A DNA stretch of 64,000 bases from positions 74,324 through 138,323 of the forward strand of contig JBDKUO010000009.1 of the NCBI GenBank assembly GCA_039679645.1, in the 5' to 3' direction. This document shows positions 24,477 to 64,000 of this stretch, piece after piece; position 1 is the stretch's first letter, and each line of letters begins with the position of its first letter. The position numbers and the translations under genes were made by a program. Below the pieces are notes generated by a model, which saw nothing but the letters and a program-made list of their open reading frames with translations, was not told where the DNA came from and ran no database searches. Source of the DNA: Armatimonadota bacterium. Its GTDB lineage: Bacteria > Armatimonadota > UBA5829.

Positions 24477-24520
24477 GTTAATTCGACTCAATAAATCATA
24501 TTAGCAGCCTATCATTATTA

Positions 24521-28509: not shown

Positions 28510-28650
28510 TTCCTTTATGTCCCCTCCTTCTCGGTTGCGAGGGGGCTTTCTATGAAGCCCTCAACGCGAAATCTGCCGAGAAGCCTACCGCCCCGCATCG
28601 CGAGGCGGCGTCTTCTCTGTGCTTTATGGCCACTATATCTTCAAATCTGC
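28510..28650 (-). promoter_or_regulatory. Conserved structured leader of paralog 1: two hairpins plus a conserved box, about 200 nt upstream of the start codon
   Basis: Hairpin A is gagggggctttc-tatg-aagccctc. Hairpin B is ccgccccgcatcgcgaggcgg. The box ggccactatatcttcaaatctgcagcctgcc follows. Copies are present upstream of all five paralogs, and their stems carry compensatory base changes. Confidence 0.5.
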
Positions 28651-28752: not shown

Positions 28753-29433
28753 TCAGGCAAACTGCATTATTTTTGGCCTAGGCATGCTTTCATGCATGAC
28801 CCGGCACAAATCGGAAAGCACTTCCTCAACATGTTCTCTCGCACGGTCTTTCGCGAGTTCTTCATCACCGGAGATGATGGCATCAACAAGACTATCATGA
28901 ATACTTGGACAGCATACCGGCAGCCTCAGCCACGTTGCATTGCGGATTGTGTTTGTAATTACACGGGAATTGCTGAGAGTCCGACTAAGCAATTGTGAAC
29001 CCGAACACTGCACAATGAAAGCATGTAAGTCGGAATCCGCCTTCAGACAGCCGGCGGTGTCCTGTACAATCGCGCAATCTGTGAATGCCTTGGCAAGTTC
29101 CTTGATCTTTTCGCGCTGCTGGGTGGTTGCCCGAATCGCGCAAAATCCGGCAGCTATTTGCTCCATAGACGATCTGATCATGATCGCGCATTCTATCTCA
29201 TCAACTGACCAGTCTCTGACCTGTGCGCCCCGATTGAGTTCGCATACGACTAGCCCATCGTGCTCCAACCTGCATATTGCTTTTGCGACAGGAATGCTGC
29301 TTGTATTAAGCATCCGAGCAAGATCACGCTGTATTAGACGCATGCCGGGTTTCAGTTTTCCGCATTCAATCATATCGCGCAGTCGTTCGTAGACAGTCTC
29401 GGATATGTTTTCAGTCAGTTTCATTTCAATCAT
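28753..29433 (-). CDS. GntR/FadR-family transcriptional regulator (copy 2, about 75% identical to copy 1)
   Basis: MKLTENISETVYERLRDMIECGKLKPGMRLIQRDLARMLNTSSIPVAKAICRLEHDGLV.... The start is placed by alignment with copy 1. An alternative ATG lies at 29424. Confidence 0.8.
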   Translation of the reverse strand: MIEMKLTENISETVYERLRDMIECGKLKPGMRLIQRDLARMLNTSSIPVAKAICRLEHDGLVVCELNRGAQVRDWSVDEIECAIMIRSSMEQIAAGFCAIRATTQQREKIKELAKAFTDCAIVQDTAGCLKADSDLHAFIVQCSGSQLLSRTLSNSRVITNTIRNATWLRLPVCCPSIHDSLVDAIISGDEELAKDRAREHVEEVLSDLCRVMHESMPRPKIMQFA

Positions 29434-29530
29434 GTCTTTCTGATGTAAAACCACACTGCACTTAACTATAATACAGTGTTGCCGGCTATTCAGAAGGCGC
29501 ACTACATCTATGTGCTTAGCTCGACATTAG

Positions 29531-33439: not shown

Positions 33440-33600
33440 TCCTCTATGTACCCCCCTTATCAATTGCGAAGGGACTCTCTATGAAGCCCTCAACGCATAA
33501 TTTACCGAGGATCAACCGCCCCAATGCGAGGCGGCGTCCTCAGTGCTTTACGGCCACTATATCTTCAAATCTGCAGCCTGCCACAGACAACTCGTAATCA
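33440..33600 (-). promoter_or_regulatory. Conserved structured leader of paralog 2
   Basis: tcaattgcgaagggactctctatgaagccctcaacgcataatttaccgagg...accgccccaatgcgaggcggcgtcc...ggccactatatcttcaaatctgcagcctgcc. Confidence 0.5.
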
Positions 33601-37889: not shown

Positions 37890-38030
37890 GCCTTTATGTC
37901 TCCTCCTTACTCAATTGCGAAGGAACTCTCTTTGAAGCCCTCAACGCTGAATTAGCCAAAGTGCAGCGGCCTCGCAATGTGAGGCGGCTTTCTCTGTGCT
38001 TTACGGCCACTACTTTTTAATATGCAGTTT
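37890..38030 (-). promoter_or_regulatory. Conserved structured leader of paralog 3. A second copy of hairpin B lies at about 38170-38195.
   Basis: ctcaattgcgaaggaactctctttgaagccctcaacgctg...gcggcctcgcaatgtgaggcggc.... An extra gccgccccaagatccgaggcggc, followed by ccggccaccgg, sits at 38168-38210. Confidence 0.45.
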
Positions 38031-42254: not shown

Positions 42255-42370
42255 TCCTCCCTTCACGAATACGAGGGGGCTTTCTTTGAAGCCCTCAACG
42301 CATAATTTACCGAGGAGTAGCCGCCTCGTATTTTCGAGGCGGCGTCCTCTTTCACGGCCACTACGCTTTA
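42255..42370 (-). promoter_or_regulatory. Conserved structured leader of paralog 4
   Basis: cgagggggctttctttgaagccctcaacgcataatttaccgaggagtagccgcctcgtattttcgaggcggcgtcc. Hairpin B is a perfect 9-bp stem here. Confidence 0.5.
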
Positions 42371-46399: not shown

Positions 46400-46515
46400 T
46401 TCTTCTCAGTGCAGGAGCCTTCTCTGAGGTTCTCAGCACTTTTTTGCGGGCGAGCGCCACCTCCAATACAGAGGTGGCTCACCCGCACTCTCACTTACCG
46501 GCCACTTGTCAAGGA
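46400..46515 (-). promoter_or_regulatory. Diverged copy of the conserved leader upstream of paralog 5
   Basis: Hairpin B is replaced by gccacctc-caataca-gaggtggc, with G-to-A and C-to-T covariation that keeps the stem intact. accggccacttgtc corresponds to the ggccactat box. Confidence 0.4.
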
Positions 46516-46759: not shown

Positions 46760-47788
46760 TTATTTGTTCTTTTGGTAGAACCATTTGTGATCGAAGGACT
46801 TGAGGATCAGGCTGGTGCCGGTGGAATCATATGACCAGTATGTCAACAGAATCTTGCCGTCAACATGCGTAATGCTGACATAGGTGGAGTTACTGCTGTC
46901 ATCTATCACTCTAATGTGGCTCCAGCTCTTTCCATCGTCTTTAGAAATAGCCGAGTTCAGCGGACAGCGTCTTTGTTCATCGAAGTTCCAGACCAAAAGT
47001 AGATCGCCGGTGGCGGGAATTCGAGCAATCGTGGCCGGCGCTTTCGGCGCTACAAGCTCCCGTACACGAACCGGGCGTGTCCAGGTTCTGCCCTGGTCTT
47101 TTGAATAGCTCTTTGCCAGACAACCCATTTCGGTGCTGACGAACATCATCACTCTGCCGTCTCTAAGCTCCACAACTGCCGGGTTGTCCGCACCATAGCT
47201 GCTTGACGGATCAATTGTTCGGATGTCCACATCCTCACTCTTGCGCCAAGTTTTACCATAATCATCTGAGTAGGCAGTGAAACCTATTATGGTTTTGTCA
47301 TTTGCCCATCCGGACCATGCGGCAGCCAAAATACGTCCGCTGCCGAGTTGGATCAACCTGTTGTTGCTGATTCCTGTATATCTGGAATACCAGGCTGGCG
47401 GAACCTCCAATTTGACCCGAGGACTCCATGTTTTGCACTCATCTGAGGATTTTCGGAAGTAAACATTGCGGTCTTCAAGAGATTCCTTTACGCCATAAGA
47501 TATCAGGATCTCGTCGTTTTGCATGCGAAGTAGAGAAACCGAGTACGTTGCGATATTGCCTTCATTCGGCAGCAGCACACTATCGTTGCACCAGGTTTTG
47601 CCGCCATCAGATGATGTGATACATCTTATCTCGGCGGCATCCATGTCGTTTTTCCCACACCACTGCCCGTATGCCAGCAGCAAATCGCCATTCTTCAGGC
47701 GAATCATATCCGCTTCACCATTATGCGGGTGTTCGGGTGTGGAAGGAACCAGTATTACCGACTCAGGTTCGGGAATCTCAATCCGCAT
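46760..47788 (-). CDS. BNR/Asp-box repeat glycosyl hydrolase (sialidase-like, GH33-like), with no signal peptide
   Basis: Four Asp-box motifs are present: SSDGGKTW, SDDYGKTW, SKDQGRTW and SKDDGKSW. Confidence 0.6.
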   Translation of the reverse strand: MRIEIPEPESVILVPSTPEHPHNGEADMIRLKNGDLLLAYGQWCGKNDMDAAEIRCITSSDGGKTWCNDSVLLPNEGNIATYSVSLLRMQNDEILISYGVKESLEDRNVYFRKSSDECKTWSPRVKLEVPPAWYSRYTGISNNRLIQLGSGRILAAAWSGWANDKTIIGFTAYSDDYGKTWRKSEDVDIRTIDPSSSYGADNPAVVELRDGRVMMFVSTEMGCLAKSYSKDQGRTWTRPVRVRELVAPKAPATIARIPATGDLLLVWNFDEQRRCPLNSAISKDDGKSWSHIRVIDDSSNSTYVSITHVDGKILLTYWSYDSTGTSLILKSFDHKWFYQKNK

Positions 47789-47978
47789 TGACTATGCTCC
47801 CTGGATAGTACACTGCATTTATTTTGACTATATAATAATACACGCTCCGGCAGAATAAACGCAACTAGAAATTTGCTTCTATACCATATATATATAACCC
47901 TTCTTAATGGAAATATTTGTACATAGTGACACTAAGCCGCGCTTTTTAATTCGCGCGGCTTAGAAGCTATATCCATTT

Positions 47979-48425
47979 TCAGAAAGGATCCGAGGGAGGG
48001 ATGTTTCCGGCGACCGGCACATTGAACGAAAACTGTTCATGAGACTGCAAGCTGTTGGCATCTACTGCGTATATGACAACCGTACAGGTCAGGGAAGCCG
48101 ATGATATGTTGGACGGAGCGGTCACAACAGCCTGATAAGTGCTGCCGCTACTTAGCGTCATCGCCTTTTCAGATATCAGTTTACCGCCTTTGCTTACAGC
48201 AGCCTTCACAGAGCTAATAGAGGAAGCATCCGTCACATCAGCCATAATCGTCACGTTTCCCCCTACAAATGTAAGGGATGACGTGTCTGCCTTCATATTT
48301 TCTATTTTCGGACCACTTGTATCCGGCGCAGGCGTTCCGCCTCCGCCGCCACCACATCCGGCAACCAATACTACACCAATGCATGCAATTACCAGCACCG
48401 CAGTATTTGTTTTAATCAACTTCAT
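47979..48425 (-). CDS. Small lipoprotein (lipobox LVAGCGGGGGG, Ig-like body)
   Basis: MKLIKTNTAVLVIACIGVVLVAGC is followed by a Gly run. It is a paralog of the gene at 61574-62035. Confidence 0.6.
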   Translation of the reverse strand: MKLIKTNTAVLVIACIGVVLVAGCGGGGGGTPAPDTSGPKIENMKADTSSLTFVGGNVTIMADVTDASSISSVKAAVSKGGKLISEKAMTLSSGSTYQAVVTAPSNISSASLTCTVVIYAVDANSLQSHEQFSFNVPVAGNIPPSDPF

Positions 48426-48447: not shown

Positions 48448-51400
48448 TTAAGGCGCAGGCAGTATTAGGTCACACTCTGCTTTAGCCTTGATCCAGAATG
48501 CCTGCCATGGCGCCAATACTCCAACCGCATCAGGCAGCACGGACTTGTCATATACCAGATAGTAACTACCAGCATCAGGATCCCATCCCCAGGCATAATT
48601 GCAGACGAGACTATCCGCCTCTCTGAGGGTGACGCTGCTCCCCATATAATTAACCTTTATGGCATCAGAATCCCAGGTAACATCCTTCACAAACGGATTG
48701 CCGATCATGTTCCAACCCGCATACAGATGAATTGTCGCAGGGTTTTTCTGCGATGGTATAATCCCCGTTGGCGTCAAATGCGTACTGCCGAAGCGTACCC
48801 AGAACCCACGCCCGGGTGTTTGATCCGCCGGGTCAAACCAAGTTAGATCATCAGGATACATGACATAAGCATTAGATTGTGTATCATACATCGCCCAACA
48901 ATTTGTGTAGAAATCAATTGCAGCCTTAGGATCGGTCTCATCCGGTATGATCGGCAGAGACACCATAGCCACGCTTGTCCACGCATCACCAGGCGTTCTT
49001 TCAAGCACGTTGACCTTGAGCGTATCGGTACCCTTATTTCCCGCCGTATCAATCGCAGTAACTGTTATTGTGTCACTGTAACTGTCGTCGCCATCATCGG
49101 GAATAGTGATGTCACCAGTGCTCCAAGTGCTCCATGGTGAAACTCCGCTGCACTCCCCGGAGCTACCTGATGATTTCGACCATTTCACACTCACAATTCC
49201 TTTGTCGTCAGACGCAGTCCCCGATATCGTCACCGTATTGCAATTTTTTGTGCATTCACTATCGGTTGTAGGCGAAGTGATTGTTATCTTGGGTGCTACG
49301 TTGTCGTAATTAACGGTGATCGGATCCGACGCGCTGTTTGCGTCGCCATATCCGTTGTGCACAACCGCCTCATCAATGGAGGCAATCACTGTTCCGGTCT
49401 TGCTCATTCCGCTTACGGCAACCGAATATGTCTTGTTGTCTGCGCCTTTTGCTACGACTGCACTTGTAGCGCCTGCCGTGCCTGCGAGTGTTACATCACC
49501 TGTAGCAAAGTCGTTTACATCCTCACTGAATACAACCTTCAGATTAATCGGAGAAGTGTTTGTCGTATCTGCCTGGTCTTTATCGAGACCTATCGTTGCA
49601 GTTAAAGGCTTCCAGGTATATGTAACCATCACAGCCGATGAAACCGTATTAAGATTACCTGCATCATCGCTGGCTACAGACGCCGGAATCTGCGCTGTCA
49701 AAGTACCAGCGGATGTTAGTCCGCTCACTGTAATGTTATATGTGGTCCTGTCAAAAGGCTCAGCCTCTAACAATGTGACGCTCGTAGTGCCGCTCGCTGT
49801 ACTTTTTATCTTCATATCAGATTTGTCAAAGCCGGAAACAGGCTCGCTGAAGACAGCAGTGAAGCAGATAGGCAGCGTCCTTGTGGTGTCTTCCTGGCCG
49901 GCAGCTCTGCTTAAAGTGACGGTCGGAACGTCCATGTCATAGTCTACCGTGCATTCGTCGGATGCTGTATTGCCATTGCCTTCCAAGTCAATTACGGCAT
50001 TTCTTGGGATCGATATCGTCACATCACCGGAACTGCCCATACCGCTTACCGCAACTGTGTAAACAGCACCGGTTCCTGACACGTCCGCAGTTGTCGGATT
50101 GGCCAATCCACTCAAATCCACATCGCTGTCTTCAAAACCAGTAACTGCACTGCTGAAAACAACCTTGAAGTTGACAGGTGACTTATTTGTCAGGTCATTA
50201 TCCTTAGTGATTGTAACTGACGGACCGGGCCAAGTATACGATATCTGATCAAGTAGAACACCCGCGGTATTTGGATTACCCGCCACATCATTGGCAGCGC
50301 CGGCCGGAATCGAAATAGACACGAATCCGGAAGAAGTCATCCCAGATACAGCAACATCAAAGATCTGGCCGACTGAACCCCCATCAGGCGTCACGACTGC
50401 AGTTGTCGCACCTGCCGTACCATCTGCAGATACGTCGGATGAAGTAAAGCCGGTCACCGGCTTAGAGAATGTGACCGTAAAGTGGACCGGACTTTCATTT
50501 GTGGGATTATCGCCGGCAGGCTCCATTTGAACTGTCGGTGCAGTTATATCGTATGTTACGACATTGTCGCCACCGTCAGACGCCTCATTGTAGTTTACAC
50601 CACTAAGGTCGACGGCAGCCGCCGCTGGAATATCTATCTGAACAGTCCCTGACGACGTTATGTCTGATACGGTTACTTCGTAAGTCGTGCCACTGCCGGA
50701 TACCGCAACTGTTTTGGCCCCGCCTGCTGTGCTGGAAGATGTATCCACATCAGAAGAGCTGTCACCAAAACCGGTAACGGGTTCGCTGAACACGACCTTG
50801 AATTTTATCGGTTGGTTTTTAGCTATGAGCGCCTGGCCGGTCGCCCTAGTTATCGTAACAGTCGGATTGCTTTGATCGTCATAGACAACTTCATTGTCTA
50901 CAATATTCGATCCATCTTCCAAGTTAACATTGTAGTTGCCCGCAGCATCCTGAATCGATCCCACAGGTATATTGACAATTACACTGCCTGAATGAGAAGC
51001 GCCATCGACTGTGACTGTGTATGTGAGAGAATCTATCGGATTGACCTCAATACTTAGGTTGCCGCCGACAGTGCTCTGAGAAATATCAATATTATCTTTC
51101 GTGAAGATCTTCACTGCTTCCGAGAGAGTCACCAAGAAGTTGACCTGCGGATCAGTCGTAGGATCAACCTGCCCATCCGCTAATTTTATAGTCGCAACCG
51201 GCGATGTCCTGTCGAAAAGAACAGTGTCCGTTACACCGGCCTCTTTGGTGGTGGACGCCGCATTCGCATTGCCCGCAGTATCAAAAACCTTTCCGGCTTC
51301 AACTTGAAGCGTAACCGTTCCATCCGTCATGCTGCTTACGGCTACATTGTATTTTTTGCCGGGTACGATTGGTACCACAGTCTTTTCTATCGTTACACCA

Positions 51401-54400
51401 GCCGTACCGCTGCCAGTAACAGTCACGTCACCGGCGCCAAAGTCCCTGTGTTTTCCTTCTGCATCCAGTCCTTGTATTGTCTCGCTGAACTCCACAATAA
51501 AGTTGACAGGGCTGCCATTAGTCGGGCTCACTTGGCCATCAGCAAGGCTGATTGTTACAGTCGGCGGCTGATTGTCCAGTGATATCTGATTGTCAGTGCT
51601 CGTGGACGCGCTGTTCTTGATTCCCGCAGCATCAGTCGCAACATCAGCCGGAACCACCGCCGTGATTGTTCCTACACCGATGACATCGTTCACAGCAATC
51701 TCGTATGTCGTTCCATCCGTCATTGCAGTGTCTGTAAACGATGTTGCTACCGCACCGTCACCAATTGCATATTTCAAGTTGCCGTTGATAGCATCATAGT
51801 AACTAATGCATGGAACATCCGATGAATCCAATACAAGAGAACAATACTGACCTACATTACGATGATCAGCATCAGCCGGAGTTCCATCATCGGCAGTTTT
51901 TATGCTCCAATTTATTGGTAACGCGGCTGCATCACCCTGCGCATATTTCAATATCTTGCCGGTCGCGTCATAATAGGCAATCCGCGGAAGACCGCCGGAG
52001 TCCAGTTTCAAAGAGCTGAACAGACCAACATTATTCGCGGAGTTATCTACAGCCACTACCGTAAACTTGGGTCCGGTTGGAGCATCACCCTCAGCATATT
52101 TAAGATTGCCATTGGTCACATCATAATAGCTGATCCGCGGTTTCCCTGCCGAATCGAGAGCAAGAGAGACATATTGACCAACATCATCAGTCGAATCGAC
52201 TGCTTGGATAGTCCAGGTGGGATTTTGAGCGGCGCTGCCCTCAGCGTAAAGAATGTCGCCATTTTTCTCATCATAATAGGCTATACGCGGCCTGCCACTC
52301 GTATCAAAAGCCAGAGAGCTATACTTTCCTACTTTGTCGCTTGCACTGGAATTAACACCAACCACGGTAGTACAATTCCAACTGCCATTATTATAATAAG
52401 CGTACTTCAGCTTACTGTTTTCGTTATCATAGTAGCTGATAAATGGAACACCCGCGGCATTAAGCTTTAGTGATGTATACATACCGACGTCGCCGGTTTC
52501 ATCAACTGTCTGGCTGCGCCATCTTGAGCCGTCCCAAGCGGCATATTTCAGATCGCCATTTAAGAAGTCGTAGTAACTTATTCTCGGATTGCCTGCTCCG
52601 TTGATAGCAAGCGAGGTATCTTTTACTCCAAAGGCCTGTGCATCGGCAGTGCTTGTCGTCCACCGAGGGTTAGCGAAGTCTCCTGCCGCATACTTAAGCA
52701 CACCGGCCGTCGAATCAAAGTAACTCAAGTGCGGATTACCGGATGAATCGAGAGTCAAGCAGCTATACTTACCTATATCGTTACTCGGAGCAACCTCTGA
52801 GATTGTGGGAAGAGGAGTTCCAGTCAGAGTTTTTGGATCGGATTTTGTAAAGTAGATATCTGCAATGTCATCAAAATCGGTTACAGGCTCGCTGAACACT
52901 GCAGTGAAATATATAGGGCAGGATTGCGCAGGATCGACGACCTGAGAAGCTGCCTGGTTTATAGTCACAATTGGAGTGTTGTAGTAAGTTATTAATGGAG
53001 CATATAGAGAATCAGTCGTAGATGCCGTATTGCCGTTACCCGCATAGTCGGTCACTTTATTGGCAGGAACACTCATCGTAACGGTGCCGTCCGTCGTCAT
53101 GCCGCTTACGGCAACGTTGTATACCGCCCCACTACCGGAAATCGTCGCATTCGTCGCGCCTGCGGTGCCGCTTATCACAACATCCGAACTGTCGTCAAAA
53201 CCTGTCACAGCTTCGCTGAATGTTACGGTGAAGTTTATTGCAGCCGCATCATATACTTTGGTTAATTGAGTGGAAGCACGCGCAACAACAACACTCGGAT
53301 TTACATTATCATATGTGACTTCATTATCGGTGCCTGTTGATGCCTCATTGCCTATGTTGACAGAATTGTGCGCAGCGCCTGCATTTACATTTACCTCAAC
53401 AACGCCAAACTGTTTCATCCCACTGACGGCGATGTCATAGGTGGTCCCGATGCCGTTGACGACTACTGTGTCCGCGCCGGCTCCGGATAACGTAACGCCG
53501 CCACTGGTGAAATCGGTTACCGCTTCACTAAACACTGCTGTAAAGTGGATAATAGGGCTGTTGGTTATTTTGGCTTGACCTGCAGCCCGGCTCACATTGA
53601 CGGTCGGAGCGGGAGCATTATATTGAGCAGTTGCTGGTGATTCGGGATCGGAGGCAGAGTTGCCGAAACCATCTACAGTAACAACATCAGCAGGAATTCT
53701 GACTGTCACAGAACCGGACTTGTGTATATTACTTACAGAGATTGTGTAAACCTTGTATGTCGCATCGGCATTGGCCACCGTCACCGTAGGAGTGGTGCCG
53801 TCCTCAAAAGCAGTCCCACTAACCTCAACATCAGCAGAAGCGAAGTCTGTTGGAGACACTGCTTTGCTGAATACTGCACTAAAGGTTACCGGCAGTGTAG
53901 TAAATGGATCAGTCTGGGAAGGCGTGACAATAACGGTCAGAGGCTGATAGTACTGGACAGTATTGTCCGAGCTGTCTGATGCCATATTGCCGTTGCCGTT
54001 TTTTATATCTTGCGCGACACCAGCAGGTATGGTGACTTTGACAGTGCCGGATTTGGTCATCCCACTTACGGCAATATCATAGGTCGTCCCGTCATCCGTC
54101 GTCGGCGTGACCTTGGCAGTCGTTGCAGAAGCCGTTCCGTCCAGCACAACTCCGGTATCCGAAAAACCGGTCACAGCCGCCGAAAATTCAGCGGTAAAAT
54201 GAATTGTATCATCCTCAGTAGGGTCAATTTGATCATTCGATTGATTCACAAGCACCGTAAGTTCAGTTTCACCCGTATAATTATACTGAACGGTGTTCTC
54301 CGCGTCCATAGATGTAGATGCAGTATTGGAATTGATACCATTACCTGATGGATCACAATCCCGGGCGGCTCCGGCTGGAATGGAAACCCTTACAATGCCG

Positions 54401-57400
54401 CTGCCATTCATACCCCTGACAGCCACATTGTATTTACTGTAATGATGATATGAATCAGCCGTGCCGATGGGAGTAATGACAGCCTGCGGAGACGAAAAAG
54501 TAGCGTTGCCTGATATTGTAAGGGCGCTCGCTATATCGACCGCCGTATAGGAACCAGCAAAACCAACGACCGGCTCTGAAAATGATGCCGTAAAGTTGAT
54601 TATCGCGCTTGATGTCGTATAGTTCTGGGTAGACGCTCGACTTATGGTACAGGTAGGCGCTACCGCATCATACCATATTGAATCGGTGGATGATGCGGAG
54701 TTTGCAATACCCGAGGCGCTTGTAGCCACATTTGCAGGGACAGTAACAGTAATGCTGCCCTTGCCTGACACAGCATTGATCGCCAGGTCATAATACGAGC
54801 CGCCGCCGGCAAGTGTAGACTTAGTGACGCCCGCAGTCCCGCCGATGACTATATCATCGCCGGTAAGACCATTTACCGGCTCACTGAACACTATCGTAAA
54901 GTGGACAGGCAACTGCGATGTCGGGTCCAATTGCCCAATACCGTGACTTACATCAACACGGGGAGCGTCCTCAAAAAACAGCACACTTTCCGTATCAGAT
55001 GGGAGATTGCCCAAGTCGCTGGACATGGAAGTTGCCGCATCACCAGGAACGTAGCAGCTTACCGCGCCACTAACATAAGGAAAAACCTCAACGCGATAGA
55101 CCATGTTGGGCGTTGTCTCAACAAGAGAAGAAACAAAACCGTTGCTGATACTTATATCAGATGCAGCAAAATCATCTACAGCTTCAGAGAATGCGACAGT
55201 AAAGATCAATGGCGTCGAAATCGCCGGGCTGGCCGGAGCGGTCACTGTGCAACTCGGCTGATAGCCGGATGTGCTGTTTCCAATGCGATATCTGTATTTA
55301 AGGGAGTTATTCGTAACATCCTGATAGGTCAAGTGAGGATTGTCATGCTTGTCAAATTTAAGAGACGCGTACTTGCCGACATCATTGGAATTGACTGACG
55401 CTTCCGCCTGCCCATCATCCAATATAGAAACAGCCCATGCCGGACTCACACTGTTGTTGCCCTCGGCTAACTTGAGGTTACCGCCCGTAGTATCATAGTA
55501 AGCTATGCTCGGCTTGTCTTTGGAATCCAGGGCAAGTGAGCAATACATACCTACAGAATCAGCCGTACTATCCACTGCTCCTGTTGTCCAAGCCGGGCTG
55601 ACGGCGGCGCTGCCTTCGGCATATCTTAAGTCTTTGTTTGTGTTGTCGTAATAGGCAATCCGCGGCCTGCCGCTGGTATCCAGAGCCAGAGAGCTGTATT
55701 GGCCCACATCGTTTGCGCTCTCTACTGTAGAGCAGGTAAATGAAGGATTTATAGCCAAGCTGCCTTCCGCATACATCAACGCTGATTGAGTCACATCATA
55801 AAAGCTGATGCGCGGTTTGTCTGCGTAAAGAGCCAGTGAACAATATTTGCCCACAAACCCGGCTGTATACACCGGAATGATAGTCCATGCCGGATTGTCC
55901 GCATCGCTGCCTTGAGCATATAGAAGGTCGCCATTAGTTACATCGTAGTATGCTATGCGAGGCCTGCCACTGACATCCAGGGCAAGAGAACAATACATGC
56001 CCACATTATCATCGGCACCGGATGTTCCATCAACTATGCTGTATTTCCACGCACCATCTTTTAAGTAAGCATACTTGAGATCGGTGTTGGTGACATCATA
56101 ATAAGCTATGCGCGGGTTGCCGTCTGCATCAAGCGCGAGTGACGTATAAGCGCCCACATTTGAAGCACTACCGTCCAGAGTCTGCACCTGCCAGTTGCTG
56201 CCGTCCCATTCCGCATACTTGAGGTCACCGTTTGTGCTGTCACAATAGCTGACCTTTGGATAGCCGCTGACTGGGTCTAGCTTAAGAGAACTTGACACTC
56301 CCTGTGCTGCCACCGGGTTATAAGAGTTGCCATTATCGATCACTCCGTTCCAATATTTGTTGGTGCAATTGACAGTGAGTGTATAGCGCGTTGAGTTGCC
56401 CGGCGTATCATACGCAGTAATGGTTATTACATTTGTGCCGGGTTCAAGATAAATGCCATTATGCACCCAGGAAGTTGTGCCGCTGCAAGTGCCGCTGCCG
56501 CCCCGATCATTTGACCAAGTAACGCTGTTGATTCCGACACCGTTGCTGTCATCATCAGCGGTACCAGCGATGTCCAGAATAGGGCGAGGGGTGGTGTAAG
56601 TAGCCGCATAAGTGGACACATCCACCTTGCCGTCGCCTGCACTAGGCCGTGTTACAGCCAAGGAAACCGGCGCGACGTTATCAAACACAACGGAGTCGAC
56701 CGTGCAAGAAGACGCGTTCGCTGTCCAGTTTCCTACATTTTCATCATCCGAGACGGCACTTTCCTGAGGCAGAATCATCTGGACACGGCCGGGATAAGTC
56801 ATCCCACTTACTCCGGCGGTAAATACATCTCCGGAATATCCTGCATCCTCCGTGAAAACTGCCATCTTGGTGCCGCCGGCGGCTCCAGGATTACCTACCG
56901 GTTCAAACGTGACATCGGTATTGGTTAATCCATGTACCGGTTTACTGAACTGGACATGAAAAAAGACAGTGGGATCGTTTGTCGGATCAGTCGATATTGG
57001 TTTAATTAGCGTGCGCGGCGCATCTACGTAAGTCACAACAGGACTTGACGCTGCTTTATCATTAGTCAGGGGCGGATCATCAGTTGTTGTAAATGCGCCT
57101 GCGGCTATATTGAGCTGAAGCTTGCAATCTTTGGCAGGAAATACGTGAAAAACAATATCACCATCTCCATTAACTTCGGAATATGCGAGATTTTCATTTC
57201 CACTCGGGCATGTGTCATCTAAAGGAAACGGAGTAGTGTATATATCAGCATCCGGGCTGCAAGAGAGAACAATCGATTTAGGATTACCTATACTCACAGT
57301 CCCTGTTCCCGTGGTGGTAATATGTAATACAAAATCTACAGGAGTGTCCACACCCGGCTGACCTACTACCTTGGTGTGAGGCACAGTAATACTGACACTA

Positions 57401-57501
57401 ACCTGTGCCCACAAGCCGCTTGCGGCAATTATCAAAAGAGCGCTGATAAGAAGAGTAAATGTGAAGAAGAAGCGCGACTTACTGCTGCGGCACGTTCCCA
57501 T
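48448..57501 (-). CDS. Giant secreted surface protein of 3017 aa (tandem Ig-like domains plus two blocks of beta-propeller-type repeats)
   Basis: Signal peptide MGTCRSSKSRFFFTFTLLISALLIIAASGLWAQ. There are more than 15 Ig-like modules with the recurring strand motif F(T/K)V(T/V)FSE(P/A)V(T/S)GF. Two blocks of roughly 45-aa repeats carry the consensus (V/N)VG.Y.SLALD..G.P.I.YYD.TN.(D/N)LKYA, at about aa 400-760 and 1500-1900. Confidence 0.85.
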   Translation of the reverse strand: MGTCRSSKSRFFFTFTLLISALLIIAASGLWAQVSVSITVPHTKVVGQPGVDTPVDFVLHITTTGTGTVSIGNPKSIVLSCSPDADIYTTPFPLDDTCPSGNENLAYSEVNGDGDIVFHVFPAKDCKLQLNIAAGAFTTTDDPPLTNDKAASSPVVTYVDAPRTLIKPISTDPTNDPTVFFHVQFSKPVHGLTNTDVTFEPVGNPGAAGGTKMAVFTEDAGYSGDVFTAGVSGMTYPGRVQMILPQESAVSDDENVGNWTANASSCTVDSVVFDNVAPVSLAVTRPSAGDGKVDVSTYAATYTTPRPILDIAGTADDDSNGVGINSVTWSNDRGGSGTCSGTTSWVHNGIYLEPGTNVITITAYDTPGNSTRYTLTVNCTNKYWNGVIDNGNSYNPVAAQGVSSSLKLDPVSGYPKVSYCDSTNGDLKYAEWDGSNWQVQTLDGSASNVGAYTSLALDADGNPRIAYYDVTNTDLKYAYLKDGAWKYSIVDGTSGADDNVGMYCSLALDVSGRPRIAYYDVTNGDLLYAQGSDADNPAWTIIPVYTAGFVGKYCSLALYADKPRISFYDVTQSALMYAEGSLAINPSFTCSTVESANDVGQYSSLALDTSGRPRIAYYDNTNKDLRYAEGSAAVSPAWTTGAVDSTADSVGMYCSLALDSKDKPSIAYYDTTGGNLKLAEGNNSVSPAWAVSILDDGQAEASVNSNDVGKYASLKFDKHDNPHLTYQDVTNNSLKYRYRIGNSTSGYQPSCTVTAPASPAISTPLIFTVAFSEAVDDFAASDISISNGFVSSLVETTPNMVYRVEVFPYVSGAVSCYVPGDAATSMSSDLGNLPSDTESVLFFEDAPRVDVSHGIGQLDPTSQLPVHFTIVFSEPVNGLTGDDIVIGGTAGVTKSTLAGGGSYYDLAINAVSGKGSITVTVPANVATSASGIANSASSTDSIWYDAVAPTCTISRASTQNYTTSSAIINFTASFSEPVVGFAGSYTAVDIASALTISGNATFSSPQAVITPIGTADSYHHYSKYNVAVRGMNGSGIVRVSIPAGAARDCDPSGNGINSNTASTSMDAENTVQYNYTGETELTVLVNQSNDQIDPTEDDTIHFTAEFSAAVTGFSDTGVVLDGTASATTAKVTPTTDDGTTYDIAVSGMTKSGTVKVTIPAGVAQDIKNGNGNMASDSSDNTVQYYQPLTVIVTPSQTDPFTTLPVTFSAVFSKAVSPTDFASADVEVSGTAFEDGTTPTVTVANADATYKVYTISVSNIHKSGSVTVRIPADVVTVDGFGNSASDPESPATAQYNAPAPTVNVSRAAGQAKITNSPIIHFTAVFSEAVTDFTSGGVTLSGAGADTVVVNGIGTTYDIAVSGMKQFGVVEVNVNAGAAHNSVNIGNEASTGTDNEVTYDNVNPSVVVARASTQLTKVYDAAAINFTVTFSEAVTGFDDSSDVVISGTAGATNATISGSGAVYNVAVSGMTTDGTVTMSVPANKVTDYAGNGNTASTTDSLYAPLITYYNTPIVTINQAASQVVDPAQSCPIYFTAVFSEPVTDFDDIADIYFTKSDPKTLTGTPLPTISEVAPSNDIGKYSCLTLDSSGNPHLSYFDSTAGVLKYAAGDFANPRWTTSTADAQAFGVKDTSLAINGAGNPRISYYDFLNGDLKYAAWDGSRWRSQTVDETGDVGMYTSLKLNAAGVPFISYYDNENSKLKYAYYNNGSWNCTTVVGVNSSASDKVGKYSSLAFDTSGRPRIAYYDEKNGDILYAEGSAAQNPTWTIQAVDSTDDVGQYVSLALDSAGKPRISYYDVTNGNLKYAEGDAPTGPKFTVVAVDNSANNVGLFSSLKLDSGGLPRIAYYDATGKILKYAQGDAAALPINWSIKTADDGTPADADHRNVGQYCSLVLDSSDVPCISYYDAINGNLKYAIGDGAVATSFTDTAMTDGTTYEIAVNDVIGVGTITAVVPADVATDAAGIKNSASTSTDNQISLDNQPPTVTISLADGQVSPTNGSPVNFIVEFSETIQGLDAEGKHRDFGAGDVTVTGSGTAGVTIEKTVVPIVPGKKYNVAVSSMTDGTVTLQVEAGKVFDTAGNANAASTTKEAGVTDTVLFDRTSPVATIKLADGQVDPTTDPQVNFLVTLSEAVKIFTKDNIDISQSTVGGNLSIEVNPIDSLTYTVTVDGASHSGSVIVNIPVGSIQDAAGNYNVNLEDGSNIVDNEVVYDDQSNPTVTITRATGQALIAKNQPIKFKVVFSEPVTGFGDSSSDVDTSSSTAGGAKTVAVSGSGTTYEVTVSDITSSGTVQIDIPAAAAVDLSGVNYNEASDGGDNVVTYDITAPTVQMEPAGDNPTNESPVHFTVTFSKPVTGFTSSDVSADGTAGATTAVVTPDGGSVGQIFDVAVSGMTSSGFVSISIPAGAANDVAGNPNTAGVLLDQISYTWPGPSVTITKDNDLTNKSPVNFKVVFSSAVTGFEDSDVDLSGLANPTTADVSGTGAVYTVAVSGMGSSGDVTISIPRNAVIDLEGNGNTASDECTVDYDMDVPTVTLSRAAGQEDTTRTLPICFTAVFSEPVSGFDKSDMKIKSTASGTTSVTLLEAEPFDRTTYNITVSGLTSAGTLTAQIPASVASDDAGNLNTVSSAVMVTYTWKPLTATIGLDKDQADTTNTSPINLKVVFSEDVNDFATGDVTLAGTAGATSAVVAKGADNKTYSVAVSGMSKTGTVIASIDEAVVHNGYGDANSASDPITVNYDNVAPKITITSPTTDSECTKNCNTVTISGTASDDKGIVSVKWSKSSGSSGECSGVSPWSTWSTGDITIPDDGDDSYSDTITVTAIDTAGNKGTDTLKVNVLERTPGDAWTSVAMVSLPIIPDETDPKAAIDFYTNCWAMYDTQSNAYVMYPDDLTWFDPADQTPGRGFWVRFGSTHLTPTGIIPSQKNPATIHLYAGWNMIGNPFVKDVTWDSDAIKVNYMGSSVTLREADSLVCNYAWGWDPDAGSYYLVYDKSVLPDAVGVLAPWQAFWIKAKAECDLILPAP

Positions 57502-57807
57502 AGTATCTTAATTCTCCTTTGTCGCCATCCCAGAATAAATAACCTCACCAAATATAGTGAGGAGATGGCATGTCTTTCCTTCAAGCCGGCTCAATGCAGC
57601 CGACAAATATTACAGGCTTCACTTCAGCCAGATTAACTAGACTCAATATATCGCAGCGGCGATGCCGTTGTCAATACGTTGAGGCTCCTATTTGGGTTCA
57701 CATGAAGTTCCGGTCGGCAACCTTGCGCCGACACCTCCATTTGCCCATTTTAGGACGACCAAACAGACCTGTAGGTTCCAGCTTGTCATACAGGTATGCA
57801 TATTGCT

Positions 57808-58449
57808 TCAGGAGTTATCGGCATCTTCCTCCGTGATTCGGACTTTGTGAAGGTGACAAGTGTCATTAAGAAGCCGCAGAGCAGGGCGATCACTCAGTTC
57901 GAGGATGGAAATGCCGGCATTGGACATGGCCATACATCGGAAAAACGCAGGGCCCTGGCCGCATGCGGCGCATATAAGGCCGCGAAGTGATCCGCCATGC
58001 ACGACCACGAGCAGACGCTCACCATCCCTATGTTTTTCCGGTATCATTTGCAGAAACTTGCCGCAGCGGGATATCATACTCTCCAGGGTTTCAGATCCGG
58101 GCGGACGATTCTGAGCGGGATGCTCACGCCATTTGCGGTAATCTTCGGGATACTTTTCCTCAAACTCGCTTTGAGTAAGGCCCTGTACTTTGCCGAAATA
58201 TGCCTCACGGATCAGGTCCGTGGCCTGAACGGGCAGGTTATGCGGCGCAGAGATGATCTCGGCAGTGGCAAGAGCGCGGCCAAGATCGCTGGAGTATATA
58301 GCATCGAACTTCTCGGAGGCTAATCGAGCAGCAGCGGCTTGAGCCTGTTTTATGCCGAGTGGAGTAAGCGGCGAATCGGCATGACCTTGGATACGCCCCT
58401 CCAGATTGTGCACAGTCTCGCCGTGCCTGACCAGATATAGAGTTATCAT
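57808..58449 (-). CDS. Histidine phosphatase family protein (phosphoglycerate-mutase-like)
   Basis: MITLYLVRHGETVHNLEGRIQGHADSPLTPLGIKQA contains the RHG catalytic motif. Confidence 0.8.
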   Translation of the reverse strand: MITLYLVRHGETVHNLEGRIQGHADSPLTPLGIKQAQAAAARLASEKFDAIYSSDLGRALATAEIISAPHNLPVQATDLIREAYFGKVQGLTQSEFEEKYPEDYRKWREHPAQNRPPGSETLESMISRCGKFLQMIPEKHRDGERLLVVVHGGSLRGLICAACGQGPAFFRCMAMSNAGISILELSDRPALRLLNDTCHLHKVRITEEDADNS

Positions 58450-59504
58450 ATCTCTCCCTGTTTTAATATCCCAAGCTCTCTGCCGTCACGACTTACACGC
58501 ATAGAACCCATCTGAACAACTTTGACCGGCGAGATGCTCTTGAGCGGCGAGAGAACAAATATAAGCCGCTGCTTGAAGTCGATTGACTGGATCAGCCCGA
58601 CACCGAGCGTATTTGCGTTCTCATCGGCCAGGCCTACAAGCAGGTTCTGGAACGACTCACCTGTCGCGACAGTAATACTGCTGGTCTTGAAGAGATCTTC
58701 TATCGCTCTGCGACCGCCGGCTCGATACTGCCTCTCGGATATTATAAAAATCCCTCTATCCGTAACCTCGGCATGTAAAATCCGGCACTTGAGAGACTGC
58801 TCGGCGGACTTGATATACTGCCACTTAACCGGCCTGCCCGTCGCAAGAGACGTGTTCCATAAGCAAATCTCATCCATACGTATGATATGGCCGGGTGCAT
58901 CGTGAAATTGCTTATAGAAACTCAACTGGCGGCGAGCCGTGCGAAACTCAGTGGGTTTGCGCCTGGCCTGTTCGGATGAAGCAAGCCTGCGCACTTTAAT
59001 CGAGCCGATTTTCGTAAACGGGATCAGCAGGTGATCGATCTCATGGCGCTTTTCGATACCGATAAGATAATCCGGGCGGACAAGGTCGGTCTTGTAGGTC
59101 TTTAGTTTACGACCGAGCGGACCGTCAACCAGACCTGTCGTGTCGACTATGACGAGCTTGGCACCCTGCTCTATCGCCGCCTCGACCATTTTCTTTGTGC
59201 CGACCACGCTTTCGAGCATATGACCCACGGGGCTTGTGCTGCCGACAAAATAAAGCCTCTTTGCCCGCAGGTCCGAAAGTGATTTTATGTTCCTGTCGAC
59301 CAGGGCCATACCTATGGTGCCGGGCGCGCCGATTTCTGACTGGCCTACGTCGGCATCGACCACGGCCGTCGCCACTGACGCTTCATACGCCGCTTTGCAC
59401 AGCCGCAGACAGAAACTCGTCTTGCCGACATCGACTCCGCCGACTACCATTGCAACGCCCGTCGATGATACGATCTCGGATATTATGCTTTCCCAATCCG
59501 CCAT
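58446..59504 (-). CDS. Clp1/Grc3-family P-loop polynucleotide kinase-like protein
   Basis: ...VAMVVGGVDVGKTSFCLRL... is a Walker A motif, and ...VVDADVGQSEIGAPGTIGMA... follows. LVIVDTTGLVDG is Walker B-like. The start is taken at MADWESI, and the listed ORF allows an alternative start at 59576. It overlaps the phosphatase gene by 4 nt. Confidence 0.55.
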   Translation of the reverse strand: MADWESIISEIVSSTGVAMVVGGVDVGKTSFCLRLCKAAYEASVATAVVDADVGQSEIGAPGTIGMALVDRNIKSLSDLRAKRLYFVGSTSPVGHMLESVVGTKKMVEAAIEQGAKLVIVDTTGLVDGPLGRKLKTYKTDLVRPDYLIGIEKRHEIDHLLIPFTKIGSIKVRRLASSEQARRKPTEFRTARRQLSFYKQFHDAPGHIIRMDEICLWNTSLATGRPVKWQYIKSAEQSLKCRILHAEVTDRGIFIISERQYRAGGRRAIEDLFKTSSITVATGESFQNLLVGLADENANTLGVGLIQSIDFKQRLIFVLSPLKSISPVKVVQMGSMRVSRDGRELGILKQGEI

Positions 59505-59611
59505 ATAATGCGTCTTAACACGAGATGGGGTAAATTCCTGCGTAAAGAGACCCGGCGAATAAATTCGCGGCAACAAACCCTTCGGGAACTCGAAACTCTG
59601 CCGGCAAAGAC

Positions 59612-61573: not shown

Positions 61574-62035
61574 TTACTTGTTGACCAAAGCGTTTTGCAC
61601 TGCAAGCGCGCTTGCGGTCTCGGCTTTCACCTTCAAGGGAACGTTTACTAAAAGGCTGCCGGAAGCCGCGCCGGCAGATGAGGCATACAGTACCCTCACG
61701 GTCTGAGAGTCAATCCATTTGTAGCGAGCCGCTACCGTGCCGGATGTGCCGGTTACTGCCACGGAACTGCCGCCGACAGTGACACCCGAAACAGGCTCGA
61801 ATATGCCGCTGCCAAAGTGCAGATCAAAGCTCGCCGTCTTTACCGTTCCCGCGCCGCTGACTGTCACCGGCGCGCTGACGGTCTGCCCGGTCTTGCCGGT
61901 AAGAGCAGGCTCTGTAACCGTCAGACCGAGAGTAGTCGGCGGCGCGGGAGTGCTGCTGCCGCCGCCGCCACCGCCGCATCCGGACAATATTGCCGCCAGG
62001 GCAAGAATTATTGATAATAATGTTGCTGATTTCAT
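61574..62035 (-). CDS. Small lipoprotein (lipobox ILSGCGGGGGG), paralog of the gene at 47979-48425
   Basis: MKSATLLSIILALAAILSGCGGGGGGSSTPAPP... The start is taken at the internal MKS so that it does not overlap the upstream gene. Confidence 0.6.
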   Translation of the reverse strand: MKSATLLSIILALAAILSGCGGGGGGSSTPAPPTTLGLTVTEPALTGKTGQTVSAPVTVSGAGTVKTASFDLHFGSGIFEPVSGVTVGGSSVAVTGTSGTVAARYKWIDSQTVRVLYASSAGAASGSLLVNVPLKVKAETASALAVQNALVNK

Positions 62036-62046
62036 CGTATCCCTCC

Positions 62047-63036
62047 CTAGCTTCCCGACTGCTGGTGCGCGAGAATCCATTGTGCATCGGCAATGGTGAC
62101 CGAACTATCCGCATTCGCGTCCATCTCGGCTGTCTTGGCGATATCTCCAAAGAGGTATTGGAGGACGAGATCGGCGTCAGCCTTGTCCACATCACCGTCC
62201 TTATCGACATCGCCCATAAGCTTTGCAGACACTGTGACGACCACCTGGCCGCTGCCGGAGACCGACGTGTCCTGCGAACAAGATGCCGTGCACGTGAGAG
62301 TCACGCTCATATTGGACCCAGTGCTGTTGGAAGGAGCAGTATAGGTCGGGTTTTGACTGGCGGCGCTCGGTGAAAATGAACCGCCCTTGCCGCCGTCGGA
62401 CCACACATAAGACACGCTGTGCCCGCGTGAATCCACCGCGATCGCGGAGCATGTGGTCGATCCGGCGGAGTCAATAGTCGTATCACTCACGGACGGTCCG
62501 CTGGTAAATGACACCATATGCACCGGTAAAATGGTGAGCGGAGTGAATGTCGGTATCTCCGACACCCCTGTGACACTGCCGCTCAAACCGAACTCTTCAG
62601 CAGTCACACTCGATGGAGCGGTAAACGCAATCGACTTGACTATCTCCAGTGTCTCCGCGCCGCCCACTGTGCATGTAATTGAAATTGTGCGAGTCGACGA
62701 ATTCCATTCGGCAAAAAACAGCCCACCAACGCTCGAACCTTGTGTGACGCATGCTATACCGCTTCCTGAAGATGTCGTATCGAGTGTGACATCGGATGGA
62801 ACTGTAATGTGCAGCACCACTGAAGTAACACCGGTGGCGTTTTGAATAACAATCGGCGGCGTCTCGGCAGCCTCACCCGCCGTAACCACTAAGCTGGCGG
62901 GGTTGAACGTGACTTGAGGCGCTGCAAAGGCAATAGAAGGCAGCGCGACTGCAAGCGTTGCAAATAAAAGCACTTTGAGGGAGGCGGTTCGGAGATTGCC
63001 GCCTGCCATGGGCAGAAAAACCCTTAATAGTCTCAT
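62047..63036 (-). CDS. Secreted protein with a C-terminal type-I dockerin domain
   Basis: The signal peptide is ...LLFATLAVALPSIAFA. The C-terminal duplicated Ca-binding dockerin segments are GDVDKDGDVDKADADLVLQYLFG and DANADSSVTIADAQWILAHQ. Confidence 0.7.
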   Translation of the reverse strand: MRLLRVFLPMAGGNLRTASLKVLLFATLAVALPSIAFAAPQVTFNPASLVVTAGEAAETPPIVIQNATGVTSVVLHITVPSDVTLDTTSSGSGIACVTQGSSVGGLFFAEWNSSTRTISITCTVGGAETLEIVKSIAFTAPSSVTAEEFGLSGSVTGVSEIPTFTPLTILPVHMVSFTSGPSVSDTTIDSAGSTTCSAIAVDSRGHSVSYVWSDGGKGGSFSPSAASQNPTYTAPSNSTGSNMSVTLTCTASCSQDTSVSGSGQVVVTVSAKLMGDVDKDGDVDKADADLVLQYLFGDIAKTAEMDANADSSVTIADAQWILAHQQSGS

Positions 63037-63204: not shown

Positions 63205-64000
63205 TCAATTATTTGTCCGAATCGCAGCCACCAGATATGGAGGCGCTCCGGTTACACTGCCCGTAATATGAACTGTTCTTGTAGATTTGTCATATTCACT
63301 GAAGAACAGCGCGCCCGCGCCTGCGCAGCGAACAACATTTCTCAGATTTCCGCCGCCGTCCAATACAGGATAAAAACGTGAGCCGTCAGGTATTCCAATG
63401 GAAGTCTCGAACACTCCGCCCGGCGCATTTTCTACAACTACGGATATCTCATTTCCACTGTGTGAACTCACGGCGTCATACCGGCAGACAATCGCTGGAA
63501 CATACCCCGCCGACGAAACCTCGCCGGATGTATGCGCGCCCACCCAGCAGTCTACAAATGCTGCGGCATCCTGAATATCTATGCACCCGTCTCCAACGGC
63601 GGTCCAGTTGGGCCACGTGCCTTCGGTGTGCGGCGCGAGGTCGAACGGACCATCCACGGCATCCGCCCACACAGGAGTTGTCGTTGAATGCCAGCGAAGC
63701 CATTCCTGCACAAAAGCTGCAGCGTCGGTGATATTGACTGCATGATCGCCATTGAAATCGCCGGGAAGCGGAGGCTCTATATTAATATCCAAACCGATGC
63801 AGCCGTTGACCGTGATTTGAGCCGAACCGGTCTCGCCGGGAGCCGTCAGGCTGATAGACTTCACTATCTCTGCCGATGCGGACGGGTTCGACACCTCGAC
63901 GTTTATGGTTATGATTCGGCTGGTCGCGTCCCAACTGCTCGTGAGCGACGAGACATCATCGCCTGCCTCAACGCACGCCAGGCTGCCGTCCGCCACCGAA
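63205..64000 (-). CDS. Dockerin-domain protein, a paralog of the gene at 62047-63036. The N-terminus probably lies beyond the window end.
   Basis: The dockerin-like pair is GDFNGDHAVNITDAAAFVQEWL and GDGCIDIQDAAAFVDCWV. It shares the module ...FFSEYDKSTRTVHITGSVTG and ...EIVKSISLTAP with the neighbouring gene, where these read FFAEWNSSTRTISITCTVGG and EIVKSIAFTAP. Confidence 0.6.
   Translation of the reverse strand, partial: SVADGSLACVEAGDDVSSLTSSWDATSRIITINVEVSNPSASAEIVKSISLTAPGETGSAQITVNGCIGLDINIEPPLPGDFNGDHAVNITDAAAFVQEWLRWHSTTTPVWADAVDGPFDLAPHTEGTWPNWTAVGDGCIDIQDAAAFVDCWVGAHTSGEVSSAGYVPAIVCRYDAVSSHSGNEISVVVENAPGGVFETSIGIPDGSRFYPVLDGGGNLRNVVRCAGAGALFFSEYDKSTRTVHITGSVTGAPPYLVAAIRTNN

Follow-up and report, generated by a model that had tools for sequence, protein, structure and literature searches.

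The reverse strand of the 64-kb stretch analysed here (the window; positions 74,324 to 138,323 of contig JBDKUO010000009.1 in the assembly GCA_039679645.1 of an Armatimonadota bacterium) encodes, at 48448..57501, a giant protein of 3017 aa, and the question that this locus raises is what a protein of such size does and by what means it would be kept at the cell surface. The reading to which we incline, with modest confidence, is that the product of this open reading frame (ORF) is a Sec-exported, non-enzymatic surface protein resembling the fibrillar adhesins, which is sorted to the envelope or retained there by a lineage-specific C-terminal domain (CTD), with a cognate lipoprotein as the presumed partner of this domain. 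Support for the adhesin architecture is good, and the protein is probably secreted and associated with the surface as an adhesin-like fibre, its surface location being one that we infer. Anchoring through the CTD and the lipoprotein is put forward tentatively. A giant surface protein with immunoglobulin-like (Ig) repeats is ordinary for an uncultured bacterium and it is the tail that is the noteworthy part.

Integrity and architecture of the giant protein

The ORF starts with ATG, has the ribosome-binding site (RBS) AAGGAG 13 nt upstream of it and is the largest of the window, as a preliminary description of this DNA had stated, the runners-up encoding about 1200 aa. The same description raised the concern that the ORF could be an assembly artefact, and the high modularity of the gene on a contig that looks metagenome-derived would agree with collapsed or chimeric repeats. 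However, Tandem Repeats Finder detected no tandem arrays in the DNA of the gene and its best internal repeats, each shorter than 80 nt, reach 60-89% identity, none of them being near-identical. Moreover an independent metagenome-assembled genome (MAG), GCA_021371935.1, carries at locus L029 an orthologue (P0131) which is 69% identical and colinear across 3011 aligned positions with 1% gaps; it has 2983 aa as called, the gene caller having picked a later methionine. This genome also keeps the gene order of the window, namely dockerin, cohesin, BipA, CLP1_P, His_Phos_1, the giant gene, a 150-aa gene, BNR_2 and an F5/8-type-C protein. The gene is thus real and intact, and an origin as an artefact is scarcely credible.

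The composition of the protein is high in Thr, Ser, Ala, Val and Asp and low in Cys, which is usual for extracellular stalk proteins. The segment MGTCRSSKSRFFFTFTLLISALLIIAASGLWA at its N-terminus is the only strongly hydrophobic stretch (Kyte-Doolittle 2.8), with in-frame conservation at the orthologous locus, so that the signal peptide of the preliminary description is confirmed; its cleavage site, before QV, was read directly from the sequence. Residues 33-159 have no match in Pfam or in the PDB, and PDB sequence searches with the first 352 aa and with two of the Ig modules returned nothing significant.

The only family that Pfam recognises in the protein is Big_12 (PF19078), with 146.6 bits (E 3e-43; gathering score 27 bits) distributed over 10 stretches, the top one being aa 2097-2197, and NCBIfam gives no match. 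A hidden Markov model (HMM) built from the modules of the protein itself finds 16 Big_12-type Ig modules with independent E-values (i-E) from 1e-26 to 1e-38, in runs of 1, 8 and 7, in agreement with the more than 15 that had been described. By BLASTP aa 151-382 aligned with aa 2621-2835, a stretch that also covers Big_12 modules (32% identity, E 0.002). One further Ig domain, which adjoins the CTD (aa 2737-2834), shows a weak match to the Ig domain of the small lipoprotein discussed below, and the unassigned segment ahead of propeller 1 (aa 273-384) bears a weak similarity to it.

Two separate blocks of YYD-type propeller repeats had also been described and the alignment of the blades supports them, with 14 blades arranged as 7 + 7 (YYD anchors at aa 417-724 and 1592-1899, spacing about 50 aa) and the 60% consensus VG..Y.SL.LD...G.P.I.YYD.TN..LKYA.G....W. 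What had been missed is that the second propeller is nested. It fills the gap between HMM positions 45 and 48 of Ig module 9 and, because it is located exactly between the halves of this split module, it is a domain inserted into it, which makes a clean natural case of domain insertion in a stalk. Homologues of propeller 1 are found in bacteria and archaea (1782 at E <= 1e-3) and are mostly proteins of 400-650 aa consisting of one propeller followed by a lineage-specific C-terminal tag (Por_Secre_tail/FlgD_ig, MYXO-CTERM, PGF-pre-PGF or PEP-CTERM). In Pfam they carry the precomputed labels BNR_4 and DUF7253. The YYD blade motif of the giant defines a distinct, uncharacterised propeller subfamily. 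As two copies of the propeller are embedded in the stalk, this layout suggests that they are likely ligand-binding heads, the ligand being probably a glycan.

The C-terminal domain and the adjacent lipoprotein gene

The CTD comprises the last ~184 aa of the protein (MVSLPIIPD...TPGRGFW...GWNMIGNPF...YAWGW...YYLVYD...PWQAFWIKAKAECDLILPAP-stop). No family had been recognised in this region by the preliminary description and this holds for the curated libraries, with no match of the CTD in Pfam, NCBIfam or the sequences of the PDB. In addition, Pfam gave no consistent family for 47 members of the CTD family, and no second copy of the domain is present elsewhere in the window. A family profile was built from A2/A3 with the CTD of the giant as seed, and its exhaustive search returned 2342 representatives, 537 of them at E <= 1e-10 and 155 at E <= 1e-30. 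The word-indexed homologue search under-reports the family (10 and 32 relatives) and seems limited to proteins near the length of the query. The CTD of the giant is 51-69% identical to 10 independent homologues and all the named matches of the family belong to Armatimonadota. In the alignment of 47 sequences 20 columns are invariant; the invariant aromatic residues are W68, W97, W110, W140, W166 and W170, and the family motifs (MVSLP..PD, TPGRGFW, GWN.IG.PF, YAWGW, PWQAYW and C-D-L-I-L-P at the C-terminus) are all present in the giant. Judged from sequence, the family is therefore a large one, without counterpart in Pfam, NCBIfam or the PDB, and its named members come from Armatimonadota only. 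Nothing relevant was found in the literature on a sorting domain of this phylum.

The position of the CTD and the proteins which carry it bear on its role. It ends 20 aa or less from the C-terminus in 100 of 144 full-length matches, usually with ...ECDLI[LI]P[AP]P, and a signal-like segment is found at the N-terminus of 64 of the 75 full-length proteins with a terminal CTD, as against 8 of 375 control windows. The passengers include S8 subtilases with a PA domain, M6 and C10 peptidases, VWA proteins with DUF7619 and Ig arrays (Big_7/Glucodextran_B). At least eight copies occur on one 8.2-Mb chromosome, three of them in tandem, and Armatimonadota MAGs have 2-3 copies each with a single stringent search pattern. 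Extreme C-terminal location, multiple copies, diverse exported passengers of kinds that are tagged elsewhere and a restricted lineage are together classic marks of a domain for sorting or anchoring that is particular to one lineage. Since the CTD occupies the place that T9SS (type IX secretion system), MYXO-CTERM, PGF-CTERM and PEP-CTERM tags have on related passengers, it may by analogy sort the protein to the cell envelope or retain it there.

A different arrangement is seen in another part of the family, where 40 of the 144 full-length matches run on for ~256 aa after the CTD and then end in FlgD_ig. The distant relatives (loci L042-L105; proteins P0224, P0239, P0249 and others) have the CTD-like part internal and without Pfam annotation, and the tail that follows it is of constant length, with a W.VQL.V motif, a PPPP stretch and the terminal FlgD_ig; these relatives are widespread in metagenomes.

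AlphaFold2 (AF2) modelled the CTD from the 47 sequences as a beta-sandwich whose last 100 aa are confident (predicted local distance difference test, pLDDT, 87-98), and with 11 sequences the model was poor (pLDDT 58). Foldseek found no significant match of the model in the PDB (best E 0.039, template modelling score, TM, 0.27). The best match in BFVD, a 'putative hemin binding protein', was marginal (E 2.3e-3, TM 0.37), and all these matches were rejected as too weak for a fold assignment. By hhalign the CTD is unrelated to the CTD of the T9SS (11 Por_Secre_tail domains, probability 0.26%), to the cohesin of the window (0.16%) and to the small lipoprotein (0.13%).

The gene of this lipoprotein (148 aa) follows the giant gene, and the two form a predicted co-transcribed unit of two genes, to judge from the 22-nt gap containing an RBS and the terminal hairpin of -25 kcal/mol. 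In its product a lipobox (LVAG/C) is followed by a Gly6 linker, a single Ig domain of Big_7-like type and the tail PPSDPF (...VPVAGNIPPSDPF). A homologue of it lies directly downstream, on the same strand, of the CTD gene in 12 of 27 genome loci and in 4 of 12 metagenome loci, which makes 16 of 39 independent loci, and the window and L029 show the pairing beyond these 16. The paired lipoproteins, of about 150 aa, have in common the lipobox with poly-Gly, a single Ig domain and a tail PPPPPP(F), with HMM E-values between 1e-33 and 1e-53. No such partner was seen for the FlgD_ig-terminated distant relatives, two of which are followed by an ORF with a marginal match to the lipoprotein HMM (E ~5e-6). 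Moreover a proline-run tail is fused after the CTD in 13 of 156 CTD proteins, several of these runs being PPPPPF-like, and for two of them, both C10 peptidases, no same-strand downstream gene was called in the sequence examined. This fusion may be a weak 'Rosetta-stone' hint that ties the CTD to the proline tail. From the recurrent pairing the lipoprotein is suggested to be the cognate, membrane-tethered partner of the CTD.

In the reverse direction, starting from the lipoprotein, the alignment of the mature domains contains no stretch of sufficient conservation for a search, and a pattern of lipobox and poly-Gly lacked specificity, none of its 600 stretches being confirmed. The signal/lipobox/poly-Gly regions of this lipoprotein (47979-48425) and of the cohesin lipoprotein of the window (61574-62080) give sub-threshold matches to NF058595, the NCBIfam 'lipo-invert putative C-terminal anchoring domain' (18-22 bits, the cut-off being 37), which most likely reflect a similar composition only.

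Several observations weigh against the role proposed here for the giant and its CTD. The pairing with the lipoprotein is found in ~41% of the loci and not in all of them. The pairwise identities of CTDs and lipoproteins are correlated (Pearson 0.80, Mantel p ~2e-4), although this mirror-tree signal comes mostly from orthologous groups (Spearman 0.24); it therefore indicates that the genes are inherited jointly and is not a proof of contact. The link between the two proteins is one predicted from gene data. In the model of the CTD the first 80 aa, its N-terminal half, are of low confidence. As the more distant homologues of the CTD are internal, with the conserved ~256-aa tail ending in FlgD_ig, the domain may serve for binding and not for sorting. 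Finally, no match to a ligand or a fold was obtained in favour of the predicted ligand binding by the propellers, and they fall just under the threshold of BNR_4, a family that includes the PL25 lyases.

Alternative readings and known systems

In the mechanism that we propose, a non-enzymatic fibre would be exported by the Sec pathway to the cell surface, where its 16 Big_12 Ig modules would form a stalk presenting two seven-bladed propellers, one near the N-terminus and the other within Ig module 9. The propellers would act as ligand-binding, probably glycan-binding, heads, the beta-sandwich CTD would sort the protein to the envelope or hold it there, and the 148-aa lipoprotein would be its membrane-tethered cognate partner. 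The surface protein or adhesin of the preliminary description fits with the signal peptide, the Ig stalk, propellers that do not look catalytic, the absence of a membrane-spanning segment and the recurrence of the C-terminal module, adhesion being a prediction.

The most serious rival concerns the CTD, which could instead be the functional head of its proteins, that is a carbohydrate- or ligand-binding beta-sandwich of the kind of lectins or carbohydrate-binding modules (CBMs), directing many secreted enzymes and fibres to one shared substrate. In that case the lipoprotein encoded downstream would have an accessory part at the surface, or no relation to the CTD at all. The invariant set of six tryptophans is typical of sugar-binding platforms, proteases and other enzymes bear the CTD as they bear CBMs, the distant homologues have it internally with a separate FlgD_ig C-terminal domain, and the weak Foldseek matches are galectin-like and jelly-roll folds. 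However, a binding head does not account well for the strict C-terminal position with the conserved ...C-D-L-I-L-P-A-P end in 100 of 144 members, nor for the recurrent cognate lipoprotein gene, and no significant CBM match was obtained in Pfam or the PDB. We consider this explanation unlikely. Even less probable, in our opinion, is that the activity resides in the propellers and that the giant is a secreted polysaccharide-processing enzyme, with catalytic propellers (BNR_4/PL25-like lyase or sialidase-like) and Ig arrays as spacers, acting together with the neighbouring BNR_2 protein and five F5/8-type-C proteins. BNR_4 (PF15892) is the Pfam signature associated with PL25 ulvan lyases, the genes around the giant are glycan-related and the propeller reaches 26.5 bits on this model (E 4.9e-6). 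This score is nevertheless below the gathering cut-off of 27.3 bits and the match covers one blade-length stretch only (model positions 227-266 of 272). A PDB sequence search with propeller 1 found nothing significant, and a profile search with the propeller alignment found no PL25 or sialidase structure, its sole natural match being the uncharacterised 4irt_A (E 0.005); designed TIM barrels (E ~1e-10) were rejected as artefacts of periodicity and composition. In addition, the BNR_2 neighbour has no signal peptide, and a stalk of 16 modules with two propellers in it resembles an adhesin in layout and not an enzyme.

The preliminary description had favoured yet another role, in which the giant would be a scaffoldin or anchoring partner with cohesin-like modules for the dockerin proteins next to it. 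Dockerin and cohesin genes are indeed present in the same window as this large and modular protein, but the two dockerin ORFs (62047-63036 and 63205-63996) are 4.5 kb upstream of it, beyond three housekeeping genes (His_Phos_1, the CLP1-type kinase CLP1_P and BipA). The search for a cohesin-like fold that the description had suggested was negative throughout: Pfam detected neither Cohesin (PF00963) nor Dockerin in the giant at E <= 0.1, the cohesin of the window found nothing in it better than E 0.05 by BLASTP, the hhalign probability with the CTD profile was the one given above, and Foldseek of the CTD, the only part modelled in 3D, retrieved no cohesin. Moreover the dockerin protein has its own cohesin in the adjacent lipoprotein, and this pair (61574-63036), which is conserved in the related genome (L029 3395-4815), is a self-contained system. 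A scaffoldin is thus very improbable and the giant, if anything, would be an anchored cargo rather than a scaffold.

Fibrillar adhesins combine a signal peptide, repeated stalk domains, an adhesive domain and an anchor (Monzon et al. 2022, PMC9210967), and a propeller cluster overlapping BNR_4 (cluster 16) is rated there as 'ambiguous', possibly adhesive. The giant resembles them in its signal peptide, its 16-module Ig stalk, its BNR_4-overlapping globular domains and its dedicated C-terminal module, whereas it differs in having two propellers, one nested in a stalk module, and in being without LPXTG, T9SS CTD, RTX (repeats-in-toxin)/type I secretion system (T1SS) features or autotransporter barrel. 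None of the known anchors (LPXTG, SLH, T9SS, RTX, autotransporter) was found in it with Pfam or NCBIfam. A sortase-type tripartite signal (LPXTG, PEP-CTERM, PGF-CTERM or MYXO-CTERM) is likewise absent from the giant, which ends in ...ECDLILPAP and whose last 200 aa have no membrane-spanning segment (maximum hydropathy 0.97 in a 19-aa window). With the giant RTX/T1SS adhesins (LapA, SiiE, MpIBP) it shares the size, the long Ig-like extender and, as predicted for its propellers, ligand-binding domains among repeats; in contrast to them it has an N-terminal Sec signal, and there are no HemolysinCabind repeats, T1SS signal or nearby T1SS genes. Its propellers are multi-bladed with blades of ~50 aa, like those of BNR_4 and DUF7253 (PF23911), which include the PL25 ulvan lyases, and their homologues carry these labels; the differences are the sub-threshold, single-blade match and the PDB profile search described above.

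As to the CTD, the closest parallel is the cargo of the T9SS with a type A CTD (Por_Secre_tail/TIGR04183), which is also a folded beta-sandwich at the extreme C-terminus of unrelated signal-peptide proteins, multi-copy and lineage-restricted, and which in other phyla tags the same types of passenger (the propeller family of the giant and C10 and S8 proteases). It differs from the CTD of the giant in length (~80 aa against ~184), in the hhalign comparison and in that the giant's CTD has no Pfam or NCBIfam match. A lipoprotein gene for each cargo is no feature of the T9SS. No machinery of the T9SS (PorU/PorV/SprA etc.) was seen within the window, which was the only area looked at. Cohesin-dockerin tethering is similar in combining a C-terminal module on a secreted protein with a small lipid-anchored Ig-like or beta-sandwich partner next door, as in the genuine case at 61574-63036. 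However, the CTD is not a dockerin, having neither EF-hand repeats nor a Pfam match, the lipoprotein is not a cohesin, its match being confined to the signal/lipobox region, and the interaction is hypothetical. If the CTD and the lipoprotein do tether proteins, they would be a functional parallel of cohesin-dockerin or T9SS CTD anchoring made from unrelated parts. A possible contact would be the docking of the PPPPPF tail or of the Ig domain of the lipoprotein on the Trp-rich CTD. More speculative and still rather doubtful is that the CTD and its ~150-aa polyproline-tailed lipoprotein represent a previously undescribed system of tethering (or of delivery to the outer membrane), apparently specific to Armatimonadota, in which each cargo has its own lipid-anchored partner.

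Other elements of the window and significance

The features of the giant gene and of the two-gene unit are collected in Table 1. Between the promoter-like site and the start codon there is a terminator-like hairpin with a T-run (57543-57562, (-)), which may either end the transcription of the His_Phos_1 gene upstream or act as an attenuator in the leader.

Table 1. Features of the giant gene and of the adjoining lipoprotein gene, in the direction of transcription
Feature	Position	Strand	Basis or remark
Promoter-like site TTGACA-18-TATATT (11/12)	57645..57674	(-)	~145 nt 5' of start codon; consensus scan only, candidate
Signal peptide, aa 1-32, MGTCRSSKSRFFFTFTLLISALLIIAASGLWA then QV	57406..57501	(-)	Sole hydrophobic segment; in-frame conservation in L029
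N-terminal region, no family assigned, aa 33-159	57025..57405	(-)	Conserved in orthologue
Big_12-type Ig module 1, aa 160-272	56686..57024	(-)	Self-HMM, i-E 3.6e-29
Segment before propeller 1, possibly Ig-like, aa 273-384	56350..56685	(-)	No Pfam family
Beta-propeller 1, seven blades, aa 385-746	55264..56349	(-)	Blade alignment
Big_12-type Ig modules 2-8, aa 747-1502	52996..55263	(-)	Self-HMM, i-E 1e-26 to 1e-37
Ig module 9, N-terminal part, aa 1508-1573	52783..52980	(-)	Self-HMM, HMM positions 2-45
Beta-propeller 2, seven blades, aa ~1574-1920	51742..52782	(-)	Blade alignment and self-HMM
Ig module 9, C-terminal part, aa ~1921-1979	51565..51741	(-)	Self-HMM, HMM positions 48-103 (mapped to aa 1906-1979)
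Big_12-type Ig modules 10-16, aa 1980-2736	49294..51564	(-)	Self-HMM
Big_7/Glucodextran_B-like Ig domain adjoining the CTD, aa 2737-2834	49000..49293	(-)	Aligns with Glucodextran_B/Big_7-annotated region of CTD relatives
CTD, ~184 aa, aa 2835-3017	48451..48999	(-)	Profile family; AF2 model
Small lipoprotein, 148 aa, same unit as the giant	47979..48425	(-)	Starts 22 nt past the stop of the giant; own GGGAG RBS
Stable hairpin at the end of the two-gene unit, GC-rich stem of 10-11 bp	47933..47962	(-)	-25.1 kcal/mol, z = -6.3

Downstream of this unit, and in conserved synteny, the BNR_2 gene (46760-47788, (-)) encodes a sialidase-fold protein of 342 aa with Asp-box repeats. On the other side of the giant the gene at 58446-59576 (-), located between BipA and the histidine phosphatase and conserved in the related genome, encodes the CLP1_P protein (P-loop of Clp1/Grc3-type polynucleotide kinases) with a weak match to NOL9_C. 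The cohesin lipoprotein (61574-62080, (-)) has 168 aa with a lipobox LSGC and poly-Gly, and its gene overlaps by 34 nt the end of the one encoding the 329-aa dockerin protein (62047-63036, (-)); the dockerin match of the ORF 63205-63996 is weak.

Five tandem paralogues of 1166-1210 aa with 37-50% mutual identity occupy 24744-46256 (-). In each of them a signal peptide is combined with a PQQ-like beta-propeller and the domains CarboxypepD_reg and F5/8 type C (discoidin), and the sequence ends in ...GLGYSLNP[AV]TP. GntR/FCD regulators are encoded at 23805-24491 and 28753-29502, and the intergenic regions are long (500-850 nt). A conserved structured element of ~90-130 nt is located 120-260 nt upstream of each of the five paralogues (28546-28634, 33475-33558, 37926-38011, 42280-42362 and 46418-46506, all (-)) and also ahead of the orthologous gene in the related genome (L029 20902-21020), with the sequence AGTGGCCGTAAAGCACAGAG...GCCGCCTCG-loop-CGAGGCGGC...GCGTTGAGGGCTTCA.AGAAAGCCCC. 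RNAalifold folds it into a hairpin of 10 bp plus a nested helix, where some of the changes are two-sided. Rfam has no match to it up to E <= 1, and the element is a candidate for a leader RNA with a cis-regulatory role.

The class of adhesins to which the giant is assigned is already known, whereas the module of CTD and lipoprotein is a new variation and deserves the definition of a family. Many of the secreted proteins obtained from Armatimonadota-type genomes, a large share of them, end in the CTD. If it does form an anchoring or sorting pair with the lipoprotein, this would explain the surface display of proteases, adhesins and glycan-binding proteins in a poorly studied diderm phylum, and would provide a simple annotation marker for the surface proteome of Armatimonadota.

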